Shown here: positions 1-30,577 of the stretch, piece by piece | How the letters are laid out: each line of letters starts with the position of its first letter | How positions within the stretch are numbered: the stretch's first letter is position 1 | Assembly (NCBI GenBank): GCA_016840465.1 | Contig: JAEOSH010000005.1 | Coordinates: forward strand, 1 to 32,000 | Length of the DNA stretch: 32,000 bases | Direction: 5' to 3' | Origin: Candidatus Baldrarchaeum yapensis | GTDB lineage: Archaea; Asgardarchaeota; Baldrarchaeia; Baldrarchaeales; Baldrarchaeaceae | Made by a program: the position numbers and the translations under genes | Notes under the pieces: model-generated | What the model was told of the DNA's origin: nothing | Databases searched by the model: none | What the model saw: the letters and a program-made list of their open reading frames with translations, nothing else

Positions 1-653
1 GCCTTCACTCCCAGCCCAAGGAAGAATGCTACAAAGCACATATTCACGAAACCCATGTCTAATGTTTCCTTATTCTCGAGGAAGAACTCTGCAAGATCCG
101 TGAATCTTAATGTCGTTTGTTGCGATAAGAGAAGCACTGCGGATATTAGCAGAACCGATGCACCTATGCTACAAAGTACGAGATACTTTAATCCCGCCTC
201 AATGGACTCCGGTCTCCGGTCGTGGATTACGAGTACCGTTGAGACGACCGTTACTATCTCTAGGAATATGTACAGTGTTAGTAAATCTGCAGCGACCGCC
301 ATTCCGTACATGCTAGCTATGAACAACGCTGAAAATACATAGTATTCCCGCTGGAGACTTTGCTCCTCTTCGCTCATATACGAAAGAGACGCTATCATTG
401 CAAGAGCGCCGAGAAGTAATACTAGCCAGCCGGTGAGCGCGCCGAGGCCATCAACGTTAAACAACACCGTCAGCGTATCCACGGCTTCCCCGTCAAGTAT
501 TGCAAGTTTTGCGCCATAACTTGCAGCTATAAACGCGAGTATTGAAAATACTGTTGTAGGAATTCCATTCCTGTTCTTTGGCATTACAAATTCGAGCAAT
601 GCTCCTATGAGGAGAACACTGAGTATGCACTCGGGCGCGATCAGACAGGTCAT
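1..653 (-). CDS. Antiporter-like ion-translocating subunit (NuoN/MrpD/HyfF family) of the membrane-bound hydrogenase; truncated by window start
   Basis: Not in ORF track. Hand translation from ATG 653 (ATGA overlap with upstream stop) is open to base 1: MTCLIAPECILSVLLIG...DLLTLYIFLEIVTVVS...ESIEAGLKYLVL...FFLGLGVK. These are the conserved LF.FLE, EAG.KY and G.K motifs. Confidence 0.9.
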   Translation of the reverse strand, partial: MTCLIAPECILSVLLIGALLEFVMPKNRNGIPTTVFSILAFIAASYGAKLAILDGEAVDTLTVLFNVDGLGALTGWLVLLLGALAMIASLSYMSEEEQSLQREYYVFSALFIASMYGMAVAADLLTLYIFLEIVTVVSTVLVIHDRRPESIEAGLKYLVLCSIGASVLLISAVLLLSQQTTLRFTDLAEFFLENKETLDMGFVNMCFVAFFLGLGVK

Positions 654-1267
654 CCTACCAACCTCCTCAAACTCCAACTATTAATCGTTCCAGTCTTTTG
701 ATATGCAAGCAACGCCAAATAGAGAACCATTCCGACTACGGTTAATGTTATCAGACTACAAAGCGCGCTTTGGATCATCACTACACCTCCTACATATTCG
801 GTTGCGGAAAACACTGAGCACAGATGTAGGCCCTCGTCGATTATTGCAAGACCCACTGCGAACTTCACAATATTTCCCTTTACCAAGAGCGCATAGAGCC
901 CAACTATAAACATCGCGACCGCCAATTGCTGGTACCATGTCAGTCCTCTAACCAAGGTCCCACCTGCTGCAAATACCGTTAATGCAATAAGGGCCAGCAA
1001 CGCCATGGATGTTCCACCGCCCACAGGTTCTCTTTCCACTGGCGGCAGCTTTCTAAGGACATACAGCATCATTGAAGGTACTGCAACGCCATATACCAAC
1101 AGAACCATTGATGCTTCTATTGCATGCGGTGAGAGCCCAGCAAGCGCCGCGCCGAGTATTCCCGCTATGCCCAACAGGTATGCGGAATATCTTAGGTTTC
1201 TTGTCTCTACTGCTAATATCCCAAATATCACGAGTATCACTGAAATTGCGCTTTCCACATAACTCAT
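650..1267 (-). CDS. HyfE-like membrane subunit (NuoJ/NuoK-related)
   Basis: 205 aa, multi-TM. VAVPSMML...EREP linker as in HyfE; C-terminal half NuoK/MnhC-like (KGNIVKFAVGL, INSWSLRRLVG); operon context. Confidence 0.75.
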   Translation of the reverse strand: MSYVESAISVILVIFGILAVETRNLRYSAYLLGIAGILGAALAGLSPHAIEASMVLLVYGVAVPSMMLYVLRKLPPVEREPVGGGTSMALLALIALTVFAAGGTLVRGLTWYQQLAVAMFIVGLYALLVKGNIVKFAVGLAIIDEGLHLCSVFSATEYVGGVVMIQSALCSLITLTVVGMVLYLALLAYQKTGTINSWSLRRLVG

Positions 1268-1812
1268 TTCATCATCACCATCAAGATTTTTCTTCCAGCC
1301 TCAATATTTTCTATCTTGCGTCTGCAATTCGGACATACCTCAACAATCTGACGGAACTTCTCAATATCTATATTGTACTTCTTTAGGAGGTCTGCGACCT
1401 TTTCGAGTCCCATTTCAAGTTGCGGTTTTGGAACAAATGGAGTTCCACAAATTCTACAGGTGAGGAGAGGGACCGTGACCTTGACATAAAACGCAGACTT
1501 ATCGTAATCGCTCAATTCGAATTCGCGAGAGAGTTTTACTGCCTCTGCTGGGCATACTTCCTCACATCTCGCACAGAACGTACATTTTCCATAGAAATAT
1601 GATATGGTTCTCTCCGCACCCTTATCTTCTATTGTTATCCCCTCTGCTGAACAGACCCTAGCACATGCCCCACACCCAATGCACTTCTCGGGATCCACTT
1701 CAGGCTTTCCGCGGAATCCCTCCGGTGCTGGCGATGGTTCGTAAGGATATTTTATTGTGAAGGGACGTTTAAACAGGGCTTTTATCGTTTCAATAATTGT
1801 TCGCTCCTTCAC
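1264..1812 (-). CDS. NuoI/HycF-like 2x[4Fe-4S] subunit with extra CxxC...CPxC metal site
   Basis: TIKYPYEP...GFRGKP start; CIGCGACARVC and CTFCARCEEVCP; C-terminal CRIC...CPNC as in HycF. Confidence 0.93.
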   Translation of the reverse strand: MKERTIIETIKALFKRPFTIKYPYEPSPAPEGFRGKPEVDPEKCIGCGACARVCSAEGITIEDKGAERTISYFYGKCTFCARCEEVCPAEAVKLSREFELSDYDKSAFYVKVTVPLLTCRICGTPFVPKPQLEMGLEKVADLLKKYNIDIEKFRQIVEVCPNCRRKIENIEAGRKILMVMMK

Positions 1813-1815
1813 GTA

Positions 1816-2832
1816 TCACACCCCCACTACCGCATATAATACCAACATCTCTCCTATAAGTCCCACGAGCGAGAGCAGAAGAGCTACCTTCATGAAGAAC
1901 TTGTACGCCTGATCTATCCTGTATCTCGGATTTATGATGTCTATGTATGCCAGTATCAGTACTATCACAAAGCACTTTATCAGGAATGTTATGATGCTCG
2001 TATCTCCGCCTATGAACAATATCACGGTGAACGCTGGAAGCACGAACCACTTCAACGCGTTTGTTACCTCGAAGAGTCCCAATAACTTTCCTGAGTATTC
2101 GGTGAGTGGCCCTGCAAGTATTTCGCACTCGGCCTCGGGTATATCAAATGGCCTTTTGCCCATCTTCGCTAATACGCATAATAGGAACGATATGAATAGA
2201 CAAATCCTAAATACCACGCTCAGTACATATAGCATCGGGTCTAATCCTTCCACAGACGTTATCAGGAACGGGCCTTCCTTCGCCTGTTTGACCATCATCT
2301 CGTTGACACTAAGGGTTTTCATGAATATCACGACACCAACTATTGACACTGCAAACGGGAGTTCGCTGGATAACAGTAGGTTTACCCTTCGGCTAGCACC
2401 AACTGCACCGTAGGGCGATGCTGAACTTGCTCCCGCAACTATCTCACCGACTTCTATCAATGCGAGTAGGTATAGTATGACTATTATATCCGCCCAGAAT
2501 GCCAATGGACTCACGAGGGGTTCTGCCGTCGGAAGAACATGCGCTGGTATCGGCAATAGCCACAGAGCTGTTACACAGCCTGTTAGCGCTATTATTGGCG
2601 CCAGCACGAATAGCGTTCTATGTGCCACCTTAGGAATTATTGTCTCCTTATTGAACAATTTCACAATGTCTGCGAATACTTGATACCATGGTGGTCCTAC
2701 TCTTGACTGCATTCTTGCTCGAAGCTTTCTATAACTCCAGAGAAACATTGCACCCATAAAGAATGCAAATAAACCTCCGGGATAAAGAGCCGCATATATT
2801 ATTGCTAATATGACTTCCATAACGTCCGTCAT
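1816..2832 (-). CDS. NuoH/HycD/EchB-like membrane subunit
   Basis: RKLRARMQSRVGPPWYQVFADIVKLFNKE, ASSASPYGAVGASR, KRPFDIPEAECEILAGPLTEYSG motifs. Confidence 0.96.
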   Translation of the reverse strand: MTDVMEVILAIIYAALYPGGLFAFFMGAMFLWSYRKLRARMQSRVGPPWYQVFADIVKLFNKETIIPKVAHRTLFVLAPIIALTGCVTALWLLPIPAHVLPTAEPLVSPLAFWADIIVILYLLALIEVGEIVAGASSASPYGAVGASRRVNLLLSSELPFAVSIVGVVIFMKTLSVNEMMVKQAKEGPFLITSVEGLDPMLYVLSVVFRICLFISFLLCVLAKMGKRPFDIPEAECEILAGPLTEYSGKLLGLFEVTNALKWFVLPAFTVILFIGGDTSIITFLIKCFVIVLILAYIDIINPRYRIDQAYKFFMKVALLLSLVGLIGEMLVLYAVVGV

Positions 2833-3989
2833 TTCCTCTTCCTCCCGTACCTTATCATAAATTCGTTGAACGTCATTATCTTCTTTTCATTAGTTCGCGA
2901 ATCAACAATAATCACTCTCTCAGTACATGCAACACACGGATCGACGCTCGCAAATATTAACGGGGCATCCGCAATGGTTTCTTCAAGTAACATTGGCTTT
3001 ACCGATGCAATGTTCATGAAACTCGGAGTTCTGACTTTCACCCTTTCGGGCACATTTGTACCGTTTGATTTGATATAATACACGAGCTCTCCTCGTGGAG
3101 CCTCTACTCTTCCGAAAGCCTCACCTGGCGGAAATCTACTTACCTCAGTAACTATGGGGCCTGGTGGAAGCTTCTCTAAACTTTCATTCACCATTTTAAT
3201 GGATTCATACACTTCGTACACTCTGACGAGTGTCTTTGCGAGTACGTCACCCTCATCGAACACTATCATTTCCCAATCAAGTCTATCATATGCAGCATAA
3301 GGATCGTCCTTACGAATATCGGATGCTATTCTAGATGCCCTTGCGGTTGGTCCAACAACACCGTAGCGTTTTGCCTCCTCATGCGTTAATACGCCGACGC
3401 CCTTCACACGAGCTTCTATTACTGGATCCTGGAGAATTGCCTCAACCGTTTTGTCGAAAGCATTTTTGATAGTATCCATGTACTTCTTTACTAGCCTTAT
3501 TGTCTTTTCATCAACGTCCCTTCTGACACCACCAATGGTGTTATACGCATAGTTTACCCGGTTTCCAGTAATTATTTCCAGAAGATCCTGGACGTACTCC
3601 CTATCCCGCCATATCTGCATGAAGAGCGTATCAAACCCTATGATGTGCATCGCGACTCCTAACCATAAGAGATGGCTATGAATACGTTCGAGCTCTGCAA
3701 CTAATACTCTCAGAAACAGTGCTCTTTCGGGAGGAGTTACACCTGCAACGTCTTCAACCGTTTGGCAATAGCAGGTCGTGTGCGCATCACTACAAATTCC
3801 ACAAACGCGCTCGAATAGGAAAATATTTTGCCAGTAAGTTCTTCTCATCGCCAGATATTCGATGCCGCGATGGTGATATCCGAGTTTTATGTCGGCATCT
3901 TTGATTCTCTCTCCCTCCACCTCTAACTTGAGAAAAATGGGTTCCTTGAGCGCAACATGATACGGACCGATTGGTATTGTCGCCGCCAT
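2829..3989 (-). CDS. Group 4 [NiFe]-hydrogenase large subunit (EchE/MbhL-like), with C-terminal extension after L2
   Basis: L1 ERVCGICSDAH and L2 DPCVACTER, so all four Ni-ligating Cys are present; ELERIHSH and EAPRGE motifs; separate NuoC-like gene. Confidence 0.96.
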   Translation of the reverse strand: MAATIPIGPYHVALKEPIFLKLEVEGERIKDADIKLGYHHRGIEYLAMRRTYWQNIFLFERVCGICSDAHTTCYCQTVEDVAGVTPPERALFLRVLVAELERIHSHLLWLGVAMHIIGFDTLFMQIWRDREYVQDLLEIITGNRVNYAYNTIGGVRRDVDEKTIRLVKKYMDTIKNAFDKTVEAILQDPVIEARVKGVGVLTHEEAKRYGVVGPTARASRIASDIRKDDPYAAYDRLDWEMIVFDEGDVLAKTLVRVYEVYESIKMVNESLEKLPPGPIVTEVSRFPPGEAFGRVEAPRGELVYYIKSNGTNVPERVKVRTPSFMNIASVKPMLLEETIADAPLIFASVDPCVACTERVIIVDSRTNEKKIMTFNEFMIRYGRKRK

Positions 3990-4001
3990 CTCAACACCAC
4001 C

Positions 4002-4886
4002 TCATATTTTCACCTTCTCCAGAACATTCTTCACGGGAATCCTGTGAAGTTTGATCCCGATTTCATCGGGGGAAATACCAAACGAAAGTGCAAGTAGTTC
4101 CATTATGTGCAAAACCGGAATCCTAAAGGTCTCTTTTACGTATCTTCTCAGTTCCGTCTGTCCTAGTTCAAATTGTATATAACATGCAGGACATGCAAGG
4201 ACTATGCAGTCCGCATTGGATTCCCTCATGTTCTTAAGCTTTACATGCAGCCTGTTTTTCAGCGAAAACTCCACATTTGCCTGTCTAGCTGGATATCCAC
4301 AACATAATCTTTCAACACCATACTCCACGAGATTAGCTTCCGTGACCCTAATTAGTTCCTCAAGAAGCCGTGGCTTTTTCCATACGTCCTCATCATCCGG
4401 TTTTGCAGATCTAAATAGGTGGCAACCATAATGAACAGCAACATTAAGGCTCCTCAGAGGCCTCTTGACGTATTCTTTTAACTTCTCGATGCCTATATCC
4501 TCTCCAAGTACCTCAACTACATGCTTCACTTCTATTTTACCTTCAACCTTCTTTCCAATACCGCTCAACACCTGATTTACTTCATTACGCAACTCTGCAT
4601 CCTCTTTGAGCATATGATTGACCTCAAATAGCGTTTCATAGCAACCATTGCATAGGGTCATAATGTCCTTGCCTTTAGCTTCGGCAAGTGCTATATTCCT
4701 AGCTGCGAGTGCGGTCCACAACTTTCTTGCAACAAGCTTTGAAATTACAGGTTCAGGGCAACAAGACGCTCCCTCTAACTCCTCAATCGAAACTCCCAGT
4801 ACTTCAAAGACTTTCCTAGATGCCGCTTCAATGTTTGGCATCCTCGCGGGAATGTAGCATCCCCAAAATGCAACATATTCGGGCAT
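4002..4886 (-). CDS. hdrB: Heterodisulfide reductase subunit B (two CCG domains)
   Basis: FWGCY, SCCPEP, CNGC in domain 1; HYGCHL, LCCG, CPAC in domain 2: ten Cys as in HdrB. Confidence 0.9.
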   Translation of the reverse strand: MPEYVAFWGCYIPARMPNIEAASRKVFEVLGVSIEELEGASCCPEPVISKLVARKLWTALAARNIALAEAKGKDIMTLCNGCYETLFEVNHMLKEDAELRNEVNQVLSGIGKKVEGKIEVKHVVEVLGEDIGIEKLKEYVKRPLRSLNVAVHYGCHLFRSAKPDDEDVWKKPRLLEELIRVTEANLVEYGVERLCCGYPARQANVEFSLKNRLHVKLKNMRESNADCIVLACPACYIQFELGQTELRRYVKETFRIPVLHIMELLALSFGISPDEIGIKLHRIPVKNVLEKVKI

Positions 4887-4898
4887 CTTGCTTTCACC

Positions 4899-5570
4899 TC
4901 ACTTATATCTTAGCCTCTTCTTCTCCCAATCATACCCGGCTTCCTTATCAAATCCAGTTTCCTTCACTATTTCATGAACTTCCTTGAGAGCGTCCTCAAC
5001 AACGGCGGTTGTGGGCAATTGCGACGACAATTTTAGTTCCTCTCTCCTCCTTGCAAGTGGCGGTGCTATTTCTAATGGCTGCCCTTTGGTTATGAGCATT
5101 TCAACACTGGGTCTCTGGTCCTTTGGAATGACGCCCTCCATCGGTTTGCGCAGTGGATGAACCCCCTCTGGTAATTCGAATGGTAGTAGAAGTCTCCTTG
5201 GATCCGGATGACCTTCAAATTTTACCCCGAACAAATCGGAGATTTCACGCTCTATCCATTGAGCAGCAGGCAGGAACTCGGCAATGCTATCTATGGAAGA
5301 TTCCTCCTTCTTGACAATCGTTCTCAGGCTGAGGACGTTACCGCCACCGACGTCTATATGGTATACCATTTCGAAATCCGTGCCATTATCCACACATGAA
5401 ATAGTGATAAAACGGGCGTCGAAATTGTCGATCAAAAACTTTACCATGGACTTTACGGCATCCTTCTCAACGTTAGCAAAGTACCTCTTATCCCGCTTCT
5501 TATAGTATCTTATGAACTTATCCCCAAATTGCTCCTTCAGTTTTGAAATTATTTCCTCGACACTAATCAA
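4899..5570 (-). CDS. NuoC/EchD/MbhK-like subunit fused to an HdrC-like C-terminal tail
   Basis: aa 1-142: WIEREISDLFGVKFEGHPDPRRLLLP...HPLRK (complex I 30 kDa family). aa ~146-223: LPTT...DALKEVHEIVKETGFDKEAGYDWE resembles recalled HdrC C-termini. TTG start after GTGAGGATGA. Confidence 0.85.
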   Translation of the reverse strand: MISVEEIISKLKEQFGDKFIRYYKKRDKRYFANVEKDAVKSMVKFLIDNFDARFITISCVDNGTDFEMVYHIDVGGGNVLSLRTIVKKEESSIDSIAEFLPAAQWIEREISDLFGVKFEGHPDPRRLLLPFELPEGVHPLRKPMEGVIPKDQRPSVEMLITKGQPLEIAPPLARRREELKLSSQLPTTAVVEDALKEVHEIVKETGFDKEAGYDWEKKRLRYK

Positions 5571-5582
5571 TCATCCTCACCC

Positions 5583-7553
5583 CTATAGGAATAATATCGC
5601 TAGAATTATTGCAAGGAAGGCTGCAAGAACTATGGTATACACGTTAAGGTATCCTATTTGCACTTTTCTCAACTTCTCTGACGCTTTTACGACCAACTTG
5701 CCTATTCCGAACCAGAGTATGTCGAGGCCTCCTCTTTTCATGAACTTGTATAGTTTCTCAAACATGACCTCAGATCCGAAGAGAAACGCCTCCGGATCTG
5801 GGCGAACCCTATTTATGTCAAGGTAAGGTTGTTCGATTTCACCACCAGTGAATACGTCAATTTCCACCTCGGCAGGAGTTCTTGGCGCTAGTCCTATTCT
5901 GTAAATAGCGAGTCCCAGTATTATCGATGCAACTATCAGTCCCGTAACAAGAGTGGCAAAGTATCCTCCGAGCATTGTGGTTTCAACAAACCCTAGCCAT
6001 GTAACGTGAACTTCCCCGCCAACTAGTGCAACGGATGCGGGAATTATAAGTCGTAGCGGAACTTGAGGAACAACTCCGAAGAACAAGCATAGAAACGCCA
6101 GTATTGTTATCGAAACCTGCATTGGTAGAGGTACCTCTTTAACCTCCTTCAACTTCTCCGGTCGCGATCCGAAGAATGCTGAATATAGCAGCTTCATAAA
6201 GCTTGCAAGTGTAGCTGCACTGACGAACATAGCAATTACTGCATAAACAATGAACAGAGAACCAGCAAGACCACCTAACTCTATTCCTCTCCCCAGTGCG
6301 GCCTCATATATCATTAACTTGCTGACAAATCCGTTGAACGGCGGAATTCCGGAAACCGAAAACGCAGCAAATATGCAGGCGACTGCTGTCACTGGCATGT
6401 TCTTTGCGAGTCCACCCATTTCATCAAGGTATCTTGTACCGGTTGCGTATATTAGACAACCTGCACATAAGGAGAGCAATCCTTTGAATATTGCGTGATT
6501 CAGCAAGTGGAAGAGTCCTGCTGCAACACCAAGTGCAGTTCCGATTCCAACTCCCAAGAACATGTATCCTATTTGACTAATTGTGTGATACGCGAGCAAT
6601 CTCTCGATATCCTTTTGAGCAAGAGCGCACATCACGGCTACCGTCATTGTGATTACGCCTATCGTTGAAACGGTAAGCTGCCAGAGGAGACTCTTACCCA
6701 GGACTTCTCCAAACAGGAAATACATTCGCGCAACGAGATATATACCTGCTTTAACCATCGCGGCTGCATGCAGAAGCGCAGTGGCTGGAGACGGGGCAAC
6801 TGTGGCATCGGGTAGCCATGTATGCAACGGGAATTGAACGGATTTTGCAATTGCTGCGACAAGGAATAGCACCGCAATTATCACGGCAACATCCTTACAG
6901 TATATCAGTTTTCTTGGAAGTTCCTCGAATAGAAGAGTTCCCGCTGCTAGATACGTCCAAATAATCCCTACTAGTAATGCAAGCCCTGTTCCGTGTGTGA
7001 GCATGATTGCCTTGTATGATGCTCTTAAATGATCCGGCTTCTCATAGTGGAACCCTGTAAGGAGATATGAGCATATGCCTACCAGTTCCCAGAAGACGAA
7101 TAGTAGTATCAGGTCGCCTGCAAATGCTAACCCGGTCATGGAGCCTATAAATATCAGCATTACCGCATAGAATCTTCCTAGGTGTTCTTCTCGCTCCATA
7201 TCGGCCACTGCATATAGGAGATCCAGTGTGCCAAAGCCTGATGCTATCCCAGCTATTAACAAACTTAGACTGTCTATGTAAAGGGCAAATTCCATTCCTA
7301 TGAACGGTTGCGCTATCATTGGAACTAGTGCTGCAAATTTTTCTGAAAACTCGAGCGTGAATATCACTTTTCCTTTCTCGAGTACTTCTGGTATCAGCAT
7401 GAAGACCAGTGCTGCAGATATGAATGCTATTATTGTCGAGAACCAGCCGACTCCCTTCTTTGAAACATTACCCAGAGGGTACGCAAAAATTGCGGCCAGT
7501 ATTGGGATCGAAAACGCAAGAACTCCGATCATTCCCGGATCCAACCCTACCAC
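5583..7553 (-). CDS. NuoL/MrpA/HycC-like antiporter subunit
   Basis: WELVGICSYLL, KSVQFPLHTWLPDA, TISQIGY, NHAIFKGLL, PPFNGFVSK; C-terminal amphipathic helix plus TM. Confidence 0.95.
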   Translation of the reverse strand: MVGLDPGMIGVLAFSIPILAAIFAYPLGNVSKKGVGWFSTIIAFISAALVFMLIPEVLEKGKVIFTLEFSEKFAALVPMIAQPFIGMEFALYIDSLSLLIAGIASGFGTLDLLYAVADMEREEHLGRFYAVMLIFIGSMTGLAFAGDLILLFVFWELVGICSYLLTGFHYEKPDHLRASYKAIMLTHGTGLALLVGIIWTYLAAGTLLFEELPRKLIYCKDVAVIIAVLFLVAAIAKSVQFPLHTWLPDATVAPSPATALLHAAAMVKAGIYLVARMYFLFGEVLGKSLLWQLTVSTIGVITMTVAVMCALAQKDIERLLAYHTISQIGYMFLGVGIGTALGVAAGLFHLLNHAIFKGLLSLCAGCLIYATGTRYLDEMGGLAKNMPVTAVACIFAAFSVSGIPPFNGFVSKLMIYEAALGRGIELGGLAGSLFIVYAVIAMFVSAATLASFMKLLYSAFFGSRPEKLKEVKEVPLPMQVSITILAFLCLFFGVVPQVPLRLIIPASVALVGGEVHVTWLGFVETTMLGGYFATLVTGLIVASIILGLAIYRIGLAPRTPAEVEIDVFTGGEIEQPYLDINRVRPDPEAFLFGSEVMFEKLYKFMKRGGLDILWFGIGKLVVKASEKLRKVQIGYLNVYTIVLAAFLAIILAILFL

Positions 7554-7559
7554 CTCGCT

Positions 7560-8012
7560 TCATTCTTTATAAATTTCTTTGAGTAATGCTGTAGCCTCTT
7601 CACGTGGAACAAATCTTAATGCTCTCGATGAGCAGAACTTCACGCACTCCGGATCACCATCGCATAGATCACACTTTATCGAAACCCTCAACGCTTCATT
7701 GAACCACGGGACAGAAAGTGGACACATGACATTACACAACTGGCAACCTATGCACTTCATTACGTCTATTGTCACTATTCCGGTATCCTCGTCTTTAACG
7801 ATTGCCGACACTGGGCACACCGTTGCACAAATGGGCTCTTCGCAATGGTGACAATAAACAGCTTCAAACCTTTTTAATTCTTCAGCGAAGCTTATCTTTA
7901 TATTTGAGAGGTTGTAATCGAGAACCCCGTAGTGTTTATAGGAGCATGCGATCATGCACGATGTACATCCCGTACATCTCCACGGATTATAAACAAGTAC
8001 CATTTGCGTCAT
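7560..8012 (-). CDS. HycB/CooF/DmsB-like 4x[4Fe-4S] protein, first gene of the hydrogenase operon
   Basis: 16 Cys in four groups (CTGCTSCMIAC, CHHCEEPICATVCP, CIGCQLCNVMCP, CDLCDGDPECVKFC). Confidence 0.93.
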   Translation of the reverse strand: MTQMVLVYNPWRCTGCTSCMIACSYKHYGVLDYNLSNIKISFAEELKRFEAVYCHHCEEPICATVCPVSAIVKDEDTGIVTIDVMKCIGCQLCNVMCPLSVPWFNEALRVSIKCDLCDGDPECVKFCSSRALRFVPREEATALLKEIYKE

Positions 8013-8375
8013 CTGCGTCCCTCTCTTAATGGTGGTTAATTGAAAGTCATGAGCAACATTGAATCAGTACCTACATTTTTAAACATTTTTTGCCACAAAA
8101 AACCAGCAATCAAACCTGTTACGAAGATCTTCCATAGCAATAGCCCGTTATTGATAATCATAACAATAATCAAAATAATTTTTATACAAACGGACATTAA
8201 GATGCGTCATACTTTCGAATAAGGAAACCATCAATGATGTAATTGCAAAGAGAAGGAGCTATCTATCTATATTTCGTTTTTTGAACAATAAGGTGCTAAA
8301 GTGATACTATTAAGGGTAAAAGTAAGACCGACCGCCGGAAAATCCTGCCTCATTTTGATCTTTGATGTAAAGAAT

Positions 8376-8405
8376 GTTGTTACGTTTATTTAAAAAAGTA
8401 ACAAC
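8376..8405. promoter_or_regulatory. Perfect 8-bp inverted repeat with 14-bp AT spacer in the divergent promoter region
   Basis: GTTGTTAC (8376-8383) / GTAACAAC (8398-8405) flank GTTTATTTAAAAAA. Confidence 0.45.
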
Positions 8406-8867
8406 TCTTTCTTTTTGTACCCTCTCATGTGTATTTGATAGCCCGGCAAAAACGTATTGCAATTCGCTTTGCGTAGGTTGTAAGATCATGTGCCTTATGC
8501 ACTTTTTCGCTCCCTAACAATATAATCGGAGACTGAGTATCAATTCTTCTCCTTTGTTGTTATTTCTTTGAGAAGAAAGTTAAAATAATTTACCTTTTGG
8601 GGGGAAATATATGAACGTTGACGTTTGAAGAAAAAATTACAGTAACATCTCTACAATCATTGTATTTAATATCCAAGTGTTTTTCGTTTATCGTAAATTG
8701 ATTATATTGTGCGTCGACTAATTTTAGACGGAAGGAGATATTAGTTTTTCTTCCTCTCTACGCAAAAGATATAAAACTTTCTTATCATAACATTGCCGGA
8801 ACGTATTAGCAGTCCGTTAGGCCCATTTACGCTTCCGAATAGGACAGTGAGAACGAGAGGATCGAGT

Positions 8868-10964
8868 ATGGGGCTGCGGCCAGCAGAAATGGAAATTGTG
8901 AAAATAATTTGTCATAAGGATTATGAGCGGTCGATACTCTGCGCACTTCATGAACTTGGATGTGTAGAATTCATAGATGTCGAGCGAAAAGGGACGACAC
9001 GGGCCACAACGAGAGAGGAGAGCGAAATTCTTTCATCATTAGGGATTGTTTCTAGAATTATCGATTATCTCGGCCTCGAGAGGTATGAACCCGCGATAGA
9101 GAGAATAGAAATAGATGATAGGAAGTTGGAGAATATACTAAGATTCACAAAAGAGTTGCTGAACGAGGTTTCACCCATTGTTGACAAGCTTAGAGAGGAG
9201 GAAGAAAAGCTCATCAGAGAGAAGAACGAATGGGAAACTATGAAAAAGATTGCCGAGCAACTTGCTCCATTAAGGGTAAGACTCGAACACCTAGGTGCGG
9301 GGAAGTATTTCTTCACTGTGGCAGGAGTTGTTAAAACTGCTAGGGTTCGAAGACTTGAGTGGAATATAAGAGAGGCTACTGATGGCGCTTATGTTTTCTT
9401 TGAACACCCAATAGGAAAGGAGGAAAGTGTCGTAATAATAGGATCATTATTGGAGTACTCGGATGTCATAAGGAGAGTACTCTTCGCATTCGACTTTGAT
9501 GAGTTCAAAATTCCGGTGAACATCCAAGGGTCGGCGGAGCAAATAGTTGAGGAAGCTAACAAGAGAATTTTGGAAATAGAGGGGGATCTTGAGAAAATCA
9601 ACGAAGAGAGGGCCAAAATTGCCGAAAAGTATAGAGTTAAGCTTCTTGCGTTGGAAGAGATATTAAAACTCGAGAGAGATAGAATAGAGATTAGGCAGAA
9701 ATTCAGGGAAACTGCCGATACTGTTGAAATGTGGGGATGGGTACCGAGGAAGTATAGGAAGACCGTAGAGGAGGCGGTAGAGAGGGCAAGTGATGGAACT
9801 GCATATATAAAGTTTGAAGAACCAGATTTTCCGCCTGAGGAGTTTCCCACATATCTTGAGAATCCAAATGTCGTGAAACCATGCGAGAGATTGGTAAAAG
9901 CATATGGAGTTCCAAGATACGAGGAAATAGATCCCTCGCGGATAATAGCAATAACATTCCCGATAATATTTGGAATAATGTTTGCCGATGTTGGACATGG
10001 TGCTATACTTACGTTATTGGGACTTGCAGGCATATTAATGAAACCAATACCAAAACCTAAGGGTATCGTGGACGAAATCATGGAATATATAAGGAAAGGA
10101 GGAGTACTACTCCTTACATGCGGAATTTCATCCGTTATTTGGGGGTTCATCTTTGGAACTTTCTTTGGCATTCCAGGGTTCTTTAAACCGATATGGTTCT
10201 CCCCAGAGGCCGAAATGACAGAATTCGGCGTAGGTGGAAGGTTCTTACTACTAGAACTTGCAATAGTTATCGGAGTACTACACATATCTTCTGGAATACT
10301 GATTGCAGTCATCCAGAAATTGAGGCATGGAGAGTACGGGGAGGCGCTTCTCGGAAGATTTCCATTGCTGATAATCTACTGGTCGGCATCAATACTCGTG
10401 TTTAGCCGAGGCATAGGATTGAACTTTATGCTTTGGTTCCAACCGATAAGTGGAGAGTTTGACATTGCATTAATACCATTCCTGAAGTTCGCTGTCCCAA
10501 ACGCTATGTACTTGAGCATCTTCGGGATCATCGTGCCGCTGTTGCTGGTGCTTACATACTACGGAAGGCACGGTATGGAAGGAGTATCGGAGGCAATAGA
10601 CTTTCTATTGAGTCTGTTGAGCCATACTGTAAGTTATGCTCGAATATTTGCGCTCAACCTCATACATGGAGTACTTTCACAAATTTGTGCAACGATGATT
10701 CCAGGATTCTGGATATACGTACATACCTATATTCCTGTGCATGGCCATTACGGAATTCAGGTGAGTATCGTAGGAATAATTGCAGGAACGCTAATAATAT
10801 TGATGTTAGAGGCACTAATAGCGTTCCTTCACACGCTCCGACTCCACTGGGTCGAGTGGTTCTCGAAATTCTACATCGGAGAAGGAAAGGAATTCTTGCC
10901 ATTCAAGTCTGAGCGTCTGTTCACAATTCCAACATACATTTCTGCACTACCAATTCGTAGATAA
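8868..10964 (+). CDS. atpI: A/V-type ATP synthase subunit I (a)
   Basis: FPIIFGIMFADVGHG, HTVSYARIFAL (essential Arg), LRLHWVEWFSKFY. Start moved to ATG 8868 (after GAGAGG) from ORF-track 8793. Confidence 0.97.
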   Translation: MGLRPAEMEIVKIICHKDYERSILCALHELGCVEFIDVERKGTTRATTREESEILSSLGIVSRIIDYLGLERYEPAIERIEIDDRKLENILRFTKELLNEVSPIVDKLREEEEKLIREKNEWETMKKIAEQLAPLRVRLEHLGAGKYFFTVAGVVKTARVRRLEWNIREATDGAYVFFEHPIGKEESVVIIGSLLEYSDVIRRVLFAFDFDEFKIPVNIQGSAEQIVEEANKRILEIEGDLEKINEERAKIAEKYRVKLLALEEILKLERDRIEIRQKFRETADTVEMWGWVPRKYRKTVEEAVERASDGTAYIKFEEPDFPPEEFPTYLENPNVVKPCERLVKAYGVPRYEEIDPSRIIAITFPIIFGIMFADVGHGAILTLLGLAGILMKPIPKPKGIVDEIMEYIRKGGVLLLTCGISSVIWGFIFGTFFGIPGFFKPIWFSPEAEMTEFGVGGRFLLLELAIVIGVLHISSGILIAVIQKLRHGEYGEALLGRFPLLIIYWSASILVFSRGIGLNFMLWFQPISGEFDIALIPFLKFAVPNAMYLSIFGIIVPLLLVLTYYGRHGMEGVSEAIDFLLSLLSHTVSYARIFALNLIHGVLSQICATMIPGFWIYVHTYIPVHGHYGIQVSIVGIIAGTLIILMLEALIAFLHTLRLHWVEWFSKFYIGEGKEFLPFKSERLFTIPTYISALPIRR

Positions 10965-11010
10965 CAATTAGGTATTTATTCCAAGGTAGGCAATAATGTA
11001 GGGAGCGCTG

Positions 11011-11268
11011 ATGAGTAGAGAAGATGCATGGGCAAATGCAGCTAAGTGGATGGGCTGGGGGCTGGGATTGCCGATTATGGTATTCGTGGGAGCATATATT
11101 GGGCATGTCATTGGGTCACAATACGGGAAGATGTACGAAGCAATAGGCATCATAGTGGGAGCATTATTAGGGTTTTTTGTCGGAGTTTATGACATCCTCA
11201 TGACGGCGAAAATCATAGAGAGAAAGAAGAAAGGAAGGACTCACCGGAGTAAAAGCAATACTCAGTAG
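11011..11268 (+). CDS. Small 2-TM protein, AtpZ/AtpI ('ATPase gene 1')-like
   Basis: 85 aa; two Gly-rich TM helices (GLGLPIMVFVGAYIG / IGIIVGALLGFFVGVY) and a basic tail; lies between subunits I and C. Confidence 0.7.
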   Translation: MSREDAWANAAKWMGWGLGLPIMVFVGAYIGHVIGSQYGKMYEAIGIIVGALLGFFVGVYDILMTAKIIERKKKGRTHRSKSNTQ

Positions 11269-11280
11269 GAGGTAAGGGTC

Positions 11281-12345
11281 ATGTTAAGGGAACCTTTCTC
11301 TTATTCTTTTATAAATGCCTGGATAAGAGCAATAATGTCGAGATTTGTGACGATAGGCGACTTTGAGAGAGCTATTTCAGCTACAACTTTTGAAGAGGCA
11401 TTCAGGCTAATAGCTGCCACTACATACGCGAATGTGCTTTCTGACATCTCACCTGAGAAAATACTGACGTTTGAGGAGGTTGATACGAGGCTAAGCAAGC
11501 ATTTCATAGACACATTTGTGAGAATACTGAGACTCGTTCCAAAGCGGGCAGAAGACTTCTTGATGACTTATTTCAAGAAATTCGAATTTTCTAATCTTAA
11601 GGTGGTGCTACGAGCGAAGCATGCGAGACTTTCCAGAGAAGAAACCATGAAGTACCTTCTTCCGACATCGGAGGTAGAGTTTCACCTATTGGAAACCTAC
11701 ATGGACACCGCTGATATCGAATCTCTTATAGAACATATTCCTTATAGGGCTGTAAGAAAAGCACTCCAAGATGCATTACCGAGTTATAAGGAACTTGGAA
11801 ATACGGTGCCCCTTGAGGTCGCATTGGATAAATTGTTCTTCTCAATGATATGGGATAAGATCGATAAGCTTTCAGGAATTGACAGAAAGGAAGCCATGAG
11901 GCATATAGGGCTGGAGGCAGATCTTCAAAACATAATGACCATTTTGCGGTGTAAAGCCCTAAACATAGATCAGAACGTATTAAGACAATTTATCTTGCCA
12001 TCTCGATATCATTTTGGAGAGCAAATACAGAGGAGATGCATATTAGCAACGACTATAGAGGATGTGCTCTATGTGTTACTTAACACGTACTATAAAGATC
12101 TGATTTCTCGAGTTAAGGATACTTACGAAAAATACAAAAACATAACCAATGCGGAACGGCTTATAGAACAATACAAGGCACACGAGTATCATAGGACGTT
12201 CATAGGATACCCATTCCACATTGGAACAATCCTATCGTTCTTTAATTTGAAATTTTATGAAACAAGAAACGTACGTATAACCTTACTAGGAAAATTTGAG
12301 GGGGTTGCTCCTGAAAGGTTACGAAATCTTTTAATAATATTTTGA
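11281..12345 (+). CDS. atpC: A/V-type ATP synthase subunit C (homolog of eukaryotic V0 d)
   Basis: YSFINAWIRAIMSR, FEFSNLKVVLR, ADLQNIMTILR, YETRNVR motifs; RBS GGAGGT. Confidence 0.92.
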   Translation: MLREPFSYSFINAWIRAIMSRFVTIGDFERAISATTFEEAFRLIAATTYANVLSDISPEKILTFEEVDTRLSKHFIDTFVRILRLVPKRAEDFLMTYFKKFEFSNLKVVLRAKHARLSREETMKYLLPTSEVEFHLLETYMDTADIESLIEHIPYRAVRKALQDALPSYKELGNTVPLEVALDKLFFSMIWDKIDKLSGIDRKEAMRHIGLEADLQNIMTILRCKALNIDQNVLRQFILPSRYHFGEQIQRRCILATTIEDVLYVLLNTYYKDLISRVKDTYEKYKNITNAERLIEQYKAHEYHRTFIGYPFHIGTILSFFNLKFYETRNVRITLLGKFEGVAPERLRNLLIIF

Positions 12346-12373
12346 GGAGAAATGACAAAGGAGGGATGGCGAA

Positions 12374-12766
12374 ATGGACGCCCGGAAAAAATTCATTCTT
12401 ACACAAATGTTCTTCGTTGCAAGTGTGGTACTCATAATACTTTTCATGGTGCTGGTGCCTGTCGCAACCGCGAATTCAGGTTCTACGCAGGCCGTCAAAA
12501 CAGCCGAGGAACAAACCACTACTGTGGAGATGAAAATTGATGTGGGACTTTTAGCACTTGGTGCGGGTATCGCCGTTGGGCTAGCGGGTTTGGGCGCAGG
12601 CCTTGGAATGGGAGCCGCGGGATCTGCAGCAATGGGGGCTATCGCAGAGAGACCTGAGATTTTCGGTAGGACAATGATCTACATAGTGTTCATAGAAGCT
12701 ATTGCAATATACGGCCTTGTGATTGGATTCTTACTGTGCTTCGCAATTACGGGATTAATCCCTTAA
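12374..12766 (+). CDS. atpK: A/V-type ATP synthase subunit K (c), single hairpin with N-terminal signal-like extension
   Basis: [12 protein letters not shown]...AERPEIFGR...FIEAIAIYG with carrier Glu; hydrophobic leader ending VATA. Confidence 0.95.
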
Positions 12767-28138: not shown

Positions 28139-28401
28139 CGGAGCCCCCGGTGATATTGTCGGGGAATATGACGATCAATTTTACTGCGCTTTGATCTCTT
28201 AATGAAGTGATGAGTGTTGCAATATTTAATATTTGATAACGTGTCGGCCGTCTGACTGTACAGCATAGTTTGTTATCGTTGTACTGTACTTCAAACGTCA
28301 TCTTTGCCACATCGGAGCATTTTTAATGAACACGATGACACTCTTTGCTAACTACAGATCAAGAGACATTGATGGACACTAAAGACTTGGATGGGTTTGC
28401 C

Positions 28402-28812
28402 ATGAAAAGGGTAGCTATTGTAGATGTCGACCGTTGTGTCGGATGCCAGATGTGTATGTTCGCATGCACACGTAGGCACGGCGTGGGAGGGTTGGCGAGA
28501 AGCGCTATACACGTGAGGTCGGCAGGGGGTTTTGAAAGGGGTTTCGTCGTCATAGTGTGCAGGGCATGTTCGGATCCCCCTTGTGCAAAAGTTTGCCCTA
28601 CAGGAGCATTGAGGCCACGAAAAGGGGGCGGAGTCGTTCTTGATGAAAGGAAATGCATAGGTTGTGGGCTCTGTGCTGAAGCTTGTCCTATTGGCGCCAT
28701 ATTTTGGGATGATGAGAGAAATAAACCAGTTGTTTGTAAGTATTGTGGCTCATGTGCCGAGCATTGCCCACATGGAGTTATAAAGCTTGAGGTTTTGGAG
28801 GGAGGAGAGTAG
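28402..28812 (+). CDS. 4x[4Fe-4S] ferredoxin-like subunit paired with AOR
   Basis: CVGCQMCMFAC, CRACSDPPCAKVCP, CIGCGLCAEACP, CKYCGSCAEHCP. Start ATG 28402. Confidence 0.93.
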   Translation: MKRVAIVDVDRCVGCQMCMFACTRRHGVGGLARSAIHVRSAGGFERGFVVIVCRACSDPPCAKVCPTGALRPRKGGGVVLDERKCIGCGLCAEACPIGAIFWDDERNKPVVCKYCGSCAEHCPHGVIKLEVLEGGE

Positions 28813-28813
28813 C

Positions 28814-30577
28814 ATGGTGGATAAGCTACTAAGTAGGGTTTTATACATCGATCTTTCAGAGAGGAAGTTCTGGGCTGAGGATCGGCGAGACCTCTTCGAG
28901 GAATACCTCGGGGGAACCGGTGTAGCTATCAATCTTTTGCGCGAGGAATGTCCAAGAGGCGCAGATCCGCTGGGACCCGATAATGTTATAATATTTGCTG
29001 TTGGACCGCTGACAGCAGTCTTTCCTATGGCATCGAAGACTGTCGCACTGTTCAAATCGCCACATACGGGAAATCTCGGTGAGAGTCACGCTGGTGGAAG
29101 AAGTGCTGCTGCAATAAGGTTAGCGGGTTATGGTGCGATTGTGATAAAGGGGCAGAGTGATATACCTGTATATGTTGCGATCCACGGCGACAAGGTGTAC
29201 TTCAGAAACGCTATGGCGCTCTGGGGGATGAGAAGCACCTATACGGTCGGAAGAATAATAAGAGAGAACGAACCGGGTGCCGGAATAAGGACTATAATGA
29301 GGATAGGAAGGGCAGGAGAAAATCTCGTAACCTACGCAACGGTGGTGACTGAAACATACCGTCACTTTGGGAGACTTGGATTGGGCGCTGTCTTCGGTAG
29401 TAAAAAGCTAAAAGCAATAGTTATTTCGGGGAAGCATTCCATTCCGGTTGCTGATTCAAAAATGTACAAAGAAGTTTATGAAGAGATCTATAAGGCCGCC
29501 GTCAAATCCCCAGCAATGAAGAAGTATCATGATATAGGAACGGCGGTAAACATATTGCCCCTTAACGAATTAGGTGCACTGCCAACGATGAATCTTAAAA
29601 AATCAAGATTTGAAAACGCTGAAAAGATAGCGGGCGAGGCGCTCGCCGAGTACTATCTAGGAAGAAGAGTGGCGTGCGCTCACTGCCCGGTTGCATGCAT
29701 TCATTTGGCTATACTCAGAGAGCCTTACGTCGATGAACCTTATTTCTACAAGACAACATGGGTGTCGTATGATTACGAGCCGTTATACGCCCTTGGCACG
29801 ATGCTTGGTGGCACCGACGTTTTCAAGATGCTCAAATTAATGGAGGAGGTGGAGATCCAAGGACTTGATGCAATGAGCACTGGAGTTGTACTGGCATGGG
29901 CCACCGAGGCTATGGAGCGCGGCATGATTTCAACGAAGGAGACTCTTGGTGTTGAGTTGAAATGGGGAGATTATGACAACTATATAAAGGCCGTCCGCTT
30001 GATAGTCGAGCAACCAAATGAGTTCTATAAGGCGTTAGCGAGAGGGGTCGAGTATGCAGCATCGAAGTATGGAGGCCTAGAGTTCGCACTTGCTTTTGGC
30101 GGCAATGAGATGCCGGGGTATCACACGGGGCTCGCATGTTACGTTGGATATCTAACCGGGGCGCGGCATAGTCACCTCGACTCGGCGGGCTATAGTCTGG
30201 ATCAGAAGATGCTCTCAATGGAAAAGAGGCTAAGTCCCGAGGAGATAGGGAAGAGACTCTTTGAAGAGGAAAGTTGGAGGCAGATACTCTCGAGCTTAGT
30301 GGTGTGCTTCTTTGCAAGGGGGATCTACAAACCCGATATTGTTATCAAATGTCTCAAAGTGATGGGATATGATTTCGACGAGAACAGATTAATGGCGTTG
30401 GGCCGGAAAATTCTTCGCCTCAAGCATAAATTCAAATCTGACGAAGGATTCGATCCGAAAAAACTAAGAATTCCGAAGAGGATCCTTGAAACTGAAAGTC
30501 CACATGGAGTGCTCAGCGAGCAGGATATAAGAACGGCAGTGAATGCTTATTTTGAGGAACTTTACAAGGAACAGTGA
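28814..30577 (+). CDS. aor: Tungsten-dependent aldehyde:ferredoxin oxidoreductase family protein
   Basis: KSPHTG...ESHAGG, GRLGLGAVFGSKKLKAI, CAHCPVAC, DYEPL, GLDAMSTG. Start ATG 28814 after GGAGGAG. The subfamily is not resolved. Confidence 0.93.
   Translation: MVDKLLSRVLYIDLSERKFWAEDRRDLFEEYLGGTGVAINLLREECPRGADPLGPDNVIIFAVGPLTAVFPMASKTVALFKSPHTGNLGESHAGGRSAAAIRLAGYGAIVIKGQSDIPVYVAIHGDKVYFRNAMALWGMRSTYTVGRIIRENEPGAGIRTIMRIGRAGENLVTYATVVTETYRHFGRLGLGAVFGSKKLKAIVISGKHSIPVADSKMYKEVYEEIYKAAVKSPAMKKYHDIGTAVNILPLNELGALPTMNLKKSRFENAEKIAGEALAEYYLGRRVACAHCPVACIHLAILREPYVDEPYFYKTTWVSYDYEPLYALGTMLGGTDVFKMLKLMEEVEIQGLDAMSTGVVLAWATEAMERGMISTKETLGVELKWGDYDNYIKAVRLIVEQPNEFYKALARGVEYAASKYGGLEFALAFGGNEMPGYHTGLACYVGYLTGARHSHLDSAGYSLDQKMLSMEKRLSPEEIGKRLFEEESWRQILSSLVVCFFARGIYKPDIVIKCLKVMGYDFDENRLMALGRKILRLKHKFKSDEGFDPKKLRIPKRILETESPHGVLSEQDIRTAVNAYFEELYKEQ

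Follow-up and report, generated by a model that had tools for sequence, protein, structure and literature searches.

Why does an archaeon carry a gene for the heterodisulfide reductase subunit HdrB inside a hydrogenase operon, and what might the encoded complex do? This question is raised by the start of contig C1 of Candidatus Baldrarchaeum yapensis (JAEOSH010000005.1, positions 1 to 32,000; hereafter the window), where a group 4 [NiFe]-hydrogenase operon that includes hdrB occupies positions 1–8012 of the minus strand. We examined this stretch using an open reading frame (ORF) list and Pfam families. From the encoded subunits we consider it fairly probable that the operon specifies a membrane-bound, ion-translocating group 4 hydrogenase with HdrB that couples H2 and a disulfide in one direction or the other. 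Such a complex would have the build of a formate hydrogenlyase (FHL) or of the Mbh hydrogenase, with a methanogen-type HdrB in place of the formate dehydrogenase subunit, and would interconvert H2 and a disulfide/dithiol couple while moving ions.

ORF calling and Pfam matches identified nine closely packed minus-strand ORFs in 1–8012. These are listed in gene order, followed by a small-subunit gene from an adjoining contig:

7560–8012, minus strand: four-cluster ferredoxin, first gene of the operon (150 aa; Fer4_11, 5.8e-16)
5583–7553, minus strand: NuoL/MbhH-like antiporter-type membrane subunit (656 aa; Proton_antipo_M, 2.2e-69)
4899–5570, minus strand: NuoC-like subunit with an HdrC-derived tail (223 aa; Complex1_30kDa)
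4002–4886, minus strand: HdrB (294 aa; two CCG domains)
2829–3989, minus strand: group 4 [NiFe]-hydrogenase large subunit (386 aa; Complex1_49kDa and NiFeSe_Hases)
1816–2832, minus strand: NuoH/MbhM-like membrane subunit (338 aa; NADHdh, 5e-71)
1264–1812, minus strand: NuoI/MbhN-like 2x[4Fe-4S] subunit (182 aa; Fer4 and Fer4_7)
650–1267, minus strand: NuoJ/K-like small membrane subunit (205 aa; Oxidored_q2, 8.9e-6, just under the curated cut-off)
3–677, minus strand: N-terminal part of a NuoM/N-like antiporter subunit that runs off the contig end (Proton_antipo_M)
L005:14178–14612 on contig C46, minus strand: NuoB-type small subunit (144 aa; Oxidored_q6, 2.8e-32)

In gene order, the nine ORFs are spaced by 6, 12, 12 and 12 nt, a 4-nt overlap, 3 nt, a 4-nt overlap and finally a 28-nt overlap. 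The original prediction of a tight minus-strand operon with short gaps and overlaps was therefore borne out by the ORF coordinates, and both of its antiporter-like subunits matched Proton_antipo_M. Its central feature, an hdrB with ten CCG-domain cysteines placed between the NuoC-like gene and a large subunit with intact L1 and L2 motifs, was likewise confirmed from the translations and Pfam matches. The NuoJ/K-like gene, whose Pfam match is marginal, is kept at the same position in three orthologous loci (L023, L025 and L030).

The operon continues beyond the end of the window. The final 144 bp of contig C46 are identical to the first 144 bp of the analysed stretch, and joining the two contigs over this overlap generated a single uninterrupted NuoM-like ORF of 491 aa. 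Because nuoB lies on C46, the small subunit had seemed to be missing from the stretch supplied. The four NuoB cysteines sit in GGCNGC, GTC and PGCPP motifs, which would provide the ligands for one proximal [4Fe-4S] cluster. As nuoB is followed by a 331-bp gap, the operon most likely consists of ten genes. Two further ORFs of 81 and 258 aa without a Pfam match are present on the same strand beyond this gap (C46, L005:12758–13846, minus strand).

The encoded hydrogenase core is complete. The Ni-ligand motifs of the large subunit read RVCGICSDAH (L1) and DPCVACTER (L2) in the translation, the four cysteines of these motifs are invariant across 20 relatives, and the protein extends 28 residues beyond L2. 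Its closest solved relatives are HycE (7z0s_E, 1.1e-85) and MbhL (6cfw_L, 2.7e-85), which are about equally close. NuoH-like, NuoL/M-like, NuoC and NuoI subunits are encoded in the same operon according to Pfam, as expected for group 4. For maturation, the genome contains two HycI matches and a HypE-like (AIRS-domain) gene, the latter at a second hydrogenase locus on contig C84. The translations show all hydrogenase core subunits (large subunit, NuoB, NuoC, NuoH, NuoI and the NuoL/M/JK-like proteins) with their predicted metal ligands intact. A degenerate, Ni-free enzyme resembling Mbx or complex I was also considered and ruled out, since all four Ni ligands are preserved and the genome encodes HycI.

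HdrB gave full-length matches to solved methanogen HdrB structures (8rvu_b, 4.7e-79; 5odc_B, 8.9e-74). Its cluster cysteines (C10, 42, 43, 79, 82, 155, 195, 196, 232 and 235) are all invariant in the family alignment (A3), in which H156 of the GCH motif is nearly invariant and the position of E88 is acidic in most rows. Judged by the full-length matches, the CCG protein is a true HdrB; it has both non-cubane cluster sites.

The original prediction also stated that neither a stand-alone hdrC nor hdrA was in view. Pfam scans of the whole 32 kb indeed identified no hdrA and no gene for a ferredoxin of the HdrC type (Fer4_8/Fer4_17). That part of the claim stood, but a piece of HdrC is present nonetheless, fused to NuoC. 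Complex1_30kDa spans only residues 33–144 of the 223-aa NuoC-like protein. The NuoC part ends at about residue 145 and is followed by a 78-residue C-terminal extension (residues ~146–223, nt 4899–5135), which matched residues 118–185 of the genome's own HdrC by BLASTP (E 1e-6). When a profile built from the extensions at ten loci (alignment A2) was searched against the Protein Data Bank (PDB), it matched HdrC chains alone (8rvu_c, residues 115–184 of 185, 1.2e-14; 5odc_C, 1.7e-12). By these matches the extension is the C-terminal tail of HdrC. The HdrC ferredoxin domain, with its two [4Fe-4S] clusters, has no gene in the operon or the stretch, such that only about residues 115–184 of HdrC are represented.

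This tail accompanies hdrB in every arrangement that we found. NuoC is 215–238 aa long and carries the tail in all ten loci in which hdrB lies between nuoC and the large-subunit gene, whereas in most other loci it is about 140–170 aa. Elsewhere the tail is encoded separately, directly upstream of hdrB, by an ORF of about 90 aa whose product is homologous to the NuoC extension. Wagner et al. are said to have described in 2017 that the C-terminal segment of HdrC packs on HdrB; the open-access literature gave general descriptions of the HdrBC interface, with no statement to this effect. The constant pairing of the tail with hdrB is, at the level of sequence, the best argument for HdrB being a physical subunit of the complex. 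The opposite explanation is that hdrB is only co-transcribed and that the complex is an ordinary ferredoxin-dependent Mbh-like hydrogenase. While gene neighbourhood alone is often misleading, we regard this explanation as very improbable, as hdrB is flanked within the operon by two peripheral-arm genes, 12 nt away on either side, and a segment of its HdrC partner is covalently fused to NuoC.

The distribution of the arrangement also argues against mere co-transcription. The best relatives of the large subunit (about 60% identity) came from Asgardarchaeia, Nezhaarchaeales and Bathyarchaeia, and hdrB was found beside the large-subunit gene in six of the seven contigs that we looked up. Five of the seven have the order ferredoxin–NuoL–NuoC–hdrB–large subunit–NuoH–NuoI–...–NuoB and one, from Promethearchaeota, is ordered differently; the seventh ('Methanomicrobia', L027, 54% identity) lacks hdrB and carries an Fdh-like gene. 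Scanning contigs with the single large-subunit sequence gave no match, and an alignment-based scan with one genome per species gave 80 further loci. The closest orthologue with an identical gene order was that of Candidatus Asgardarchaeum abyssi (61% identity). The original prediction had suggested a synteny search for nuoC–hdrB–large subunit across archaea, and this order proved to be conserved across phyla, with hdrB co-located and co-oriented with the group 4 large-subunit gene in the relatives.

A maximum-likelihood tree was built from 89 related large subunits, and the 11 sequences adjacent to hdrB fell together in one split (SH-aLRT 98). Adjacency to hdrB required one change of state on this tree compared with a mean of 10.5 in 500 shuffles, none of which was as low. 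The hdrB-adjacent large subunits in this tree form one clade that spans Asgard archaea, Nezhaarchaeales and Bathyarchaeia, pointing to a single origin across Asgard and TACK. The possibility that hdrB is a chance neighbour was ruled out by the tree together with synteny.

Three gene orders were found among 151 sampled genomes of the source organism's phylum. The first, that of the analysed operon, occurs in this genome and one other (G004). The second (ferredoxin, free ~90-aa tail ORF, hdrB, nuoC, large subunit, nuoL) occurs in at least seven genomes, and the third (ferredoxin, tail ORF, hdrB, fused NuoC/large subunit) in two relatives of the same taxonomic order (L123/G039 and L125/G018). A clade-wide association that persists through three gene orders is not what co-transcription alone would lead one to expect. 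Loci with a free HdrC-tail ORF between the ferredoxin gene and hdrB include L029, L130 and L147–L154. At two Nezhaarchaeales loci (L024 and L026), HycI is encoded directly downstream of the hdrB-hydrogenase operon.

A neighbouring clade, whose grouping next to the hdrB clade is weakly supported, suggests what the scaffold may have been. At eight of its loci (e.g. L027), the gene immediately upstream of the same ferredoxin is an Fdh-like molybdopterin gene, and Fdh-like genes were confined to loci of this clade. For this reason the family resembles an FHL-type scaffold whose formate dehydrogenase has given way to HdrB. L027 and a Hadarchaeota locus (L032) lack hdrB and have an archaeal FHL-like order consisting of the Fdh-like molybdopterin gene, a ferredoxin gene of the same type, NuoC and the large subunit.

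If only the tail of HdrC is retained, another protein would have to carry electrons to HdrB, and the first gene of the operon encodes a candidate. This ferredoxin has four CxxCxxCxxxC-like motifs with 16 cysteines, sufficient for four [4Fe-4S] clusters, and all 16 are invariant in 10 orthologues. Its closest solved relatives were the AorA-type Fe-S subunit of aldehyde:ferredoxin oxidoreductase (AOR; 8c0z_C, 7.5e-35), HycB3 and HycB of FHL (7z0s_B, 1.1e-23); HdrC was not among them. Complex prediction of HdrB with the ferredoxin gave an ipSAE of 0.77, whereas the best of three controls gave 0.00. Of 80 solved complexes 58 attain the mark used, against 2 of 110 pairs that were mismatched, a calibration that is only rough here since our own alignments were used. 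The prediction runs shared at least 95% of contacts, and partner pLDDT was at least 88. In the predicted interface, the first cluster motif of the ferredoxin (residues 12–26 and 125–133) lies opposite the C-terminal CCG site of HdrB (residues 153–160 and 190–215). As HdrC is absent from the solved relatives of the ferredoxin, passing the docking mark is not simple sequence memory of HdrBC.

The predicted docking suggests that the HycB-type ferredoxin likely stands in for the missing HdrC ferredoxin domain, and it is a further point against HdrB being only co-transcribed. In the proposed arrangement, the HdrC-derived tail on NuoC would tether HdrB to the peripheral arm, the four-cluster ferredoxin would take the place of the HdrC ferredoxin domain as a wire between NuoI and HdrB, and electrons would pass along the chain [NiFe]–NuoB–NuoI–four-cluster ferredoxin–HdrB.

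Like Escherichia coli FHL-1 (PDB 7Z0S), the predicted enzyme has a HycE-type large subunit (1.1e-85), a HycB-type multi-cluster ferredoxin in the operon and a modular peripheral catalytic subunit that is here predicted to be wired to NuoI. Unlike FHL-1, the operon contains no molybdopterin formate dehydrogenase of the FdhH type, HdrB being in that role; NuoC and NuoD are separate genes, and there are two large antiporter-like subunits. With methanogen MvhAGD-HdrABC (PDB 5ODC and 8RVU), it shares a full-length HdrB with all cluster ligands and the C-terminal segment of HdrC. The HdrC ferredoxin domain is absent, however, and in the absence of HdrA there would be no flavin-based bifurcation. The methanogen hydrogenase is a soluble group 3c enzyme whereas this one is of the membrane-bound group 4, such that coupling would be chemiosmotic rather than bifurcating. 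Pyrococcus furiosus Mbh and Mbs (PDB 6CFW and 6U8Y) share the core of membrane and peripheral-arm subunits (MbhL, 2.7e-85), the MbsL-type subunit being a much weaker match (4.4e-59). In contrast to the analysed complex, P. furiosus Mbh lacks an Hdr module and is supplied with electrons by free ferredoxin.

Enzymes of this general kind have been described from genomes. Kohtz et al. (2022) reported 'HdrB-interacting' group 4 hydrogenases as Ehd, Ehe, Drh, Ehg and Ehd-like complexes, and for those in non-methanogens suggested GcvH as the disulfide carrier (PMC9723716). Ehd was assigned to Methanomethylicia, Ehe to Culexarchaeia, Drh to Methanocellales and Ehg to Nezhaarchaeia (PMC9723716). Ehg is expressed in the cultured Methanonezhaarchaeon strain YNP3N (PMC12700198), and both papers propose H2/disulfide coupling with ion translocation (PMC9723716, PMC12700198). 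The analysed operon shares with Ehd, Ehe, Drh and Ehg the co-location of hdrB with the genes for a group 4 [NiFe]-hydrogenase and an antiporter subunit; it differs in that its neighbours do not include SdhA, CdhA, FdhA or HdrA. Whereas Ehd and Ehe were described with an HdrBC core, here hdrB alone lies between nuoC and the large-subunit gene, with only the HdrC tail.

Appler et al. (2024) described Mbh-like group 4l and 4q complexes with a 'peripheral heterodisulfide reductase domain' in Asgardarchaeia and Baldrarchaeia (bioRxiv 10.1101/2024.07.04.601786). Both the lineages and the presence of an Hdr module on an Mbh-like complex match, and the analysed locus is very probably one of these complexes and presumably belongs to group 4l or 4q. 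The fusion of the HdrC tail to NuoC and the HycB-type wire are not described there, and the words HdrB, HdrC and disulfide are absent from the preprint text. Thus the novelty implied by the original prediction did not hold, as the class had already been published from genomes (Kohtz et al. 2022, PMC9723716; Appler et al. 2024).

In which direction would the complex run? Part of the answer may come from the genes on the other side of the operon's presumed promoter:

8013–8792, no strand: divergent intergenic region between the hydrogenase operon and ATP synthase genes, presumed promoter region (780 bp)
8793–12766, plus strand: A/V-type ATP synthase membrane-sector genes I (a), C (d) and K (c) (V_ATPase_I, 7.5e-61; vATP-synt_AC39, 3.6e-58; ATP-synt_C, 2.3e-20)

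The ATP synthase genes are divergent from the hydrogenase operon, 780 bp upstream of it, and are context rather than part of the complex. Together with the two antiporter-like subunits, they fit an energy-conserving role in which ion export would feed the ATP synthase encoded next door. The textbook potentials are –414 mV for H2, about –140 mV for the heterodisulfide of coenzyme M and coenzyme B (CoM-S-S-CoB) and about –290 mV for lipoamide. Electron transfer from H2 to CoM-S-S-CoB or lipoamide releases energy that could be used for ion export; to run in the opposite direction, the reaction would require very low H2 or an ion gradient. For a disulfide with an E0' well above about –300 mV, a threshold that is our own reckoning from these potentials, the favoured direction would be H2 oxidation and disulfide reduction with ion export.

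The same architecture could also operate in reverse. A low-potential dithiol, such as dihydrolipoyl-GcvH or thiols from HdrABC-type bifurcating complexes, would then be oxidised and H2 released, the complex serving as a fermentative or syntrophic electron sink that is neutral to, or driven by, the ion gradient. The lipoyl couple, at about –290 mV, could reduce protons at very low H2 pressure, and the closest solved relatives of the large subunit, HycE of FHL and MbhL of Mbh, both evolve H2. The neighbouring clade is FHL-like, with Fdh beside the same ferredoxin, and Appler et al. (2024) model the Asgard complexes as Mbh-like H2 producers (bioRxiv 10.1101/2024.07.04.601786). Even so, H2 evolution would be strongly endergonic for disulfides near the CoM-S-S-CoB potential (about –140 mV), and two antiporter-like subunits next to divergent ATP synthase genes suit energy conservation better than energy consumption. 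We consider reverse operation rather unlikely on balance.

Several points weigh against the proposed complex and its function. H2 evolution is the usual activity of the group 4 hydrogenases characterised to date, and models of Asgard archaea generally cast them as H2 producers. The predicted HdrB–ferredoxin interface may in part arise because ferredoxin folds in general resemble HdrC. No lipoate genes occur near the operon, either in the stretch or on the adjoining contig; neither GcvH nor Lpd is next to the operon, and the nearest GcvH lies about 13 kb beyond the analysed stretch. Both direction and substrate are properties that we infer. Finally, the HdrC residues Y81, E94 and K98 have been reported along the proton path and the CoM site (PMC13518236), and because they fall outside the retained tail, the surroundings of the active site are predicted to differ from those in methanogen HdrBC. 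The originally predicted anatomy, and the candidate coupling of H2 and disulfide redox chemistry to ion translocation, nevertheless fit all of our findings.

The altered surroundings of the active site also bear on the chemistry of HdrB itself, which might act on sulfane sulfur (polysulfide or a carrier-protein persulfide, as in sHdr- or Mbs-type systems) or on another CCG-protein substrate rather than an organic disulfide. CCG proteins serve several chemistries, among them those of sHdr with LbpA, thiol:fumarate reductase and LutA, and this genome encodes about 18 of them. The HdrC residues reported near the CoM site (PMC13518236) are missing, and CoM synthesis and Mcr were not found. The end-to-end alignment with methanogen HdrB (4.7e-79) and the nearly invariant H156 speak for an organic disulfide instead. 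DsrE/TusA-type carrier genes were absent from the operon and from the orthologous loci inspected, the genome as a whole not having been searched for them. Taken together, a sulfane-sulfur substrate seems distinctly improbable to us.

If HdrB does reduce or form an organic disulfide, which one would it be? McrA (PF02249) and ComA (PF02679) gave no match in the genome, which is estimated to be 96% complete; alternative CoM routes and CoB synthesis were not searched. The lack of both matches makes CoM-S-S-CoB an unlikely substrate, in agreement with the original prediction that the disulfide may not be CoM-CoB. This candidate was set aside with the reservation that, at 96% completeness, the two genes could still have been missed. 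More probable substrates than CoM-S-S-CoB are a protein of the lipoyl-GcvH type or some other thiol cofactor that the many HdrABC-type complexes of this genome would recycle.

In addition to its CCG proteins, the genome contains three GcvH-like genes and one Lpd-like gene. In Nezhaarchaeales (L024:585–4275 and L026:131–4286), LplA, a radical SAM gene, GcvH and an Lpd-like flavoprotein are encoded directly upstream of the hdrB-hydrogenase operon, and Lpd lies beside an hdrB-positive Promethearchaeota locus (L029). Lipoate genes are also found beside the second group 4 hydrogenase locus of this genome (C84), and none were found beside hdrB-negative loci. For these reasons a lipoyl protein is a reasonable candidate substrate, with the caveat that the evidence is thin and comes from few independent lineages.

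A more specific proposal, which we offer tentatively and consider unlikely to be correct in full, is that the complex acts on a lipoylated GcvH-like protein, or on some other dithiol bound to a protein or cofactor, and forms the chemiosmotic site of a thiol/disulfide cycle in non-methanogenic Wood-Ljungdahl archaea. If this were true, reduction of the carrier by H2 at the membrane would be accompanied by ion export; Lpd (with NAD+ as acceptor) or the many cytoplasmic complexes of the HdrABC or MetVF type would then return the carrier to its oxidised form. Such 'disulfide respiration without methanogenesis' would explain the persistent Hdr genes in Mcr-less Asgard archaea, Bathyarchaeia and Nezhaarchaeales.

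The second hydrogenase locus (contig C84, L022:92–12647) contains a minus-strand GcvH-LplA-HdrC-HdrB-DUF2096 array nested between the halves of the hydrogenase, with another HdrC-HdrB pair 2 kb downstream. By gene content it is closer than the analysed operon to the Ehe/Ehd type of Kohtz et al. (PMC9723716), and its large subunit falls in a different clade of the 89-sequence tree.

Elsewhere in the window, the nearest named relatives of ATP synthase subunit I were all Asgard proteins with at most 42% identity. Downstream of the I/C/K genes comes an M20 peptidase gene instead of the A/B genes for the catalytic subunits. With a length of 130 aa, the c subunit is predicted to have an N-terminal extension of about 60 aa before a single hairpin domain. 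At 19111–21930 (plus strand), overlapping MetV (DUF5981) and MetF genes are followed by a Mer-like luciferase-family gene, so that methylene reductases of the folate type and of the methanopterin type are encoded next to each other. At 28345–30577 (plus strand), the gene for a 155-aa multi-cluster ferredoxin overlaps the start of an AOR gene; the operon ferredoxin is itself most similar to an AOR subunit (8c0z_C).

From these data we conclude that the analysed locus is a real, conserved and well-resolved example of an enzyme class known as a genomic prediction. Our analysis adds the HdrC-tail fusion, the proposed HycB-type wire with its docking prediction, the single-origin clade of hdrB-adjacent hydrogenases across Asgard and TACK, and the FHL-like neighbouring group. 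The putative HdrC-tail anchor, the ferredoxin stand-in and the FHL-like scaffold with HdrB for formate dehydrogenase are mechanistic details that make the published prediction more testable. The locus bears on the wider questions of why non-methanogenic archaea keep many heterodisulfide reductase genes and how deep-branching Asgard archaea conserve energy. If a thiol/disulfide couple is used, this membrane hydrogenase would give Asgard archaea an H2-linked site of chemiosmotic coupling.

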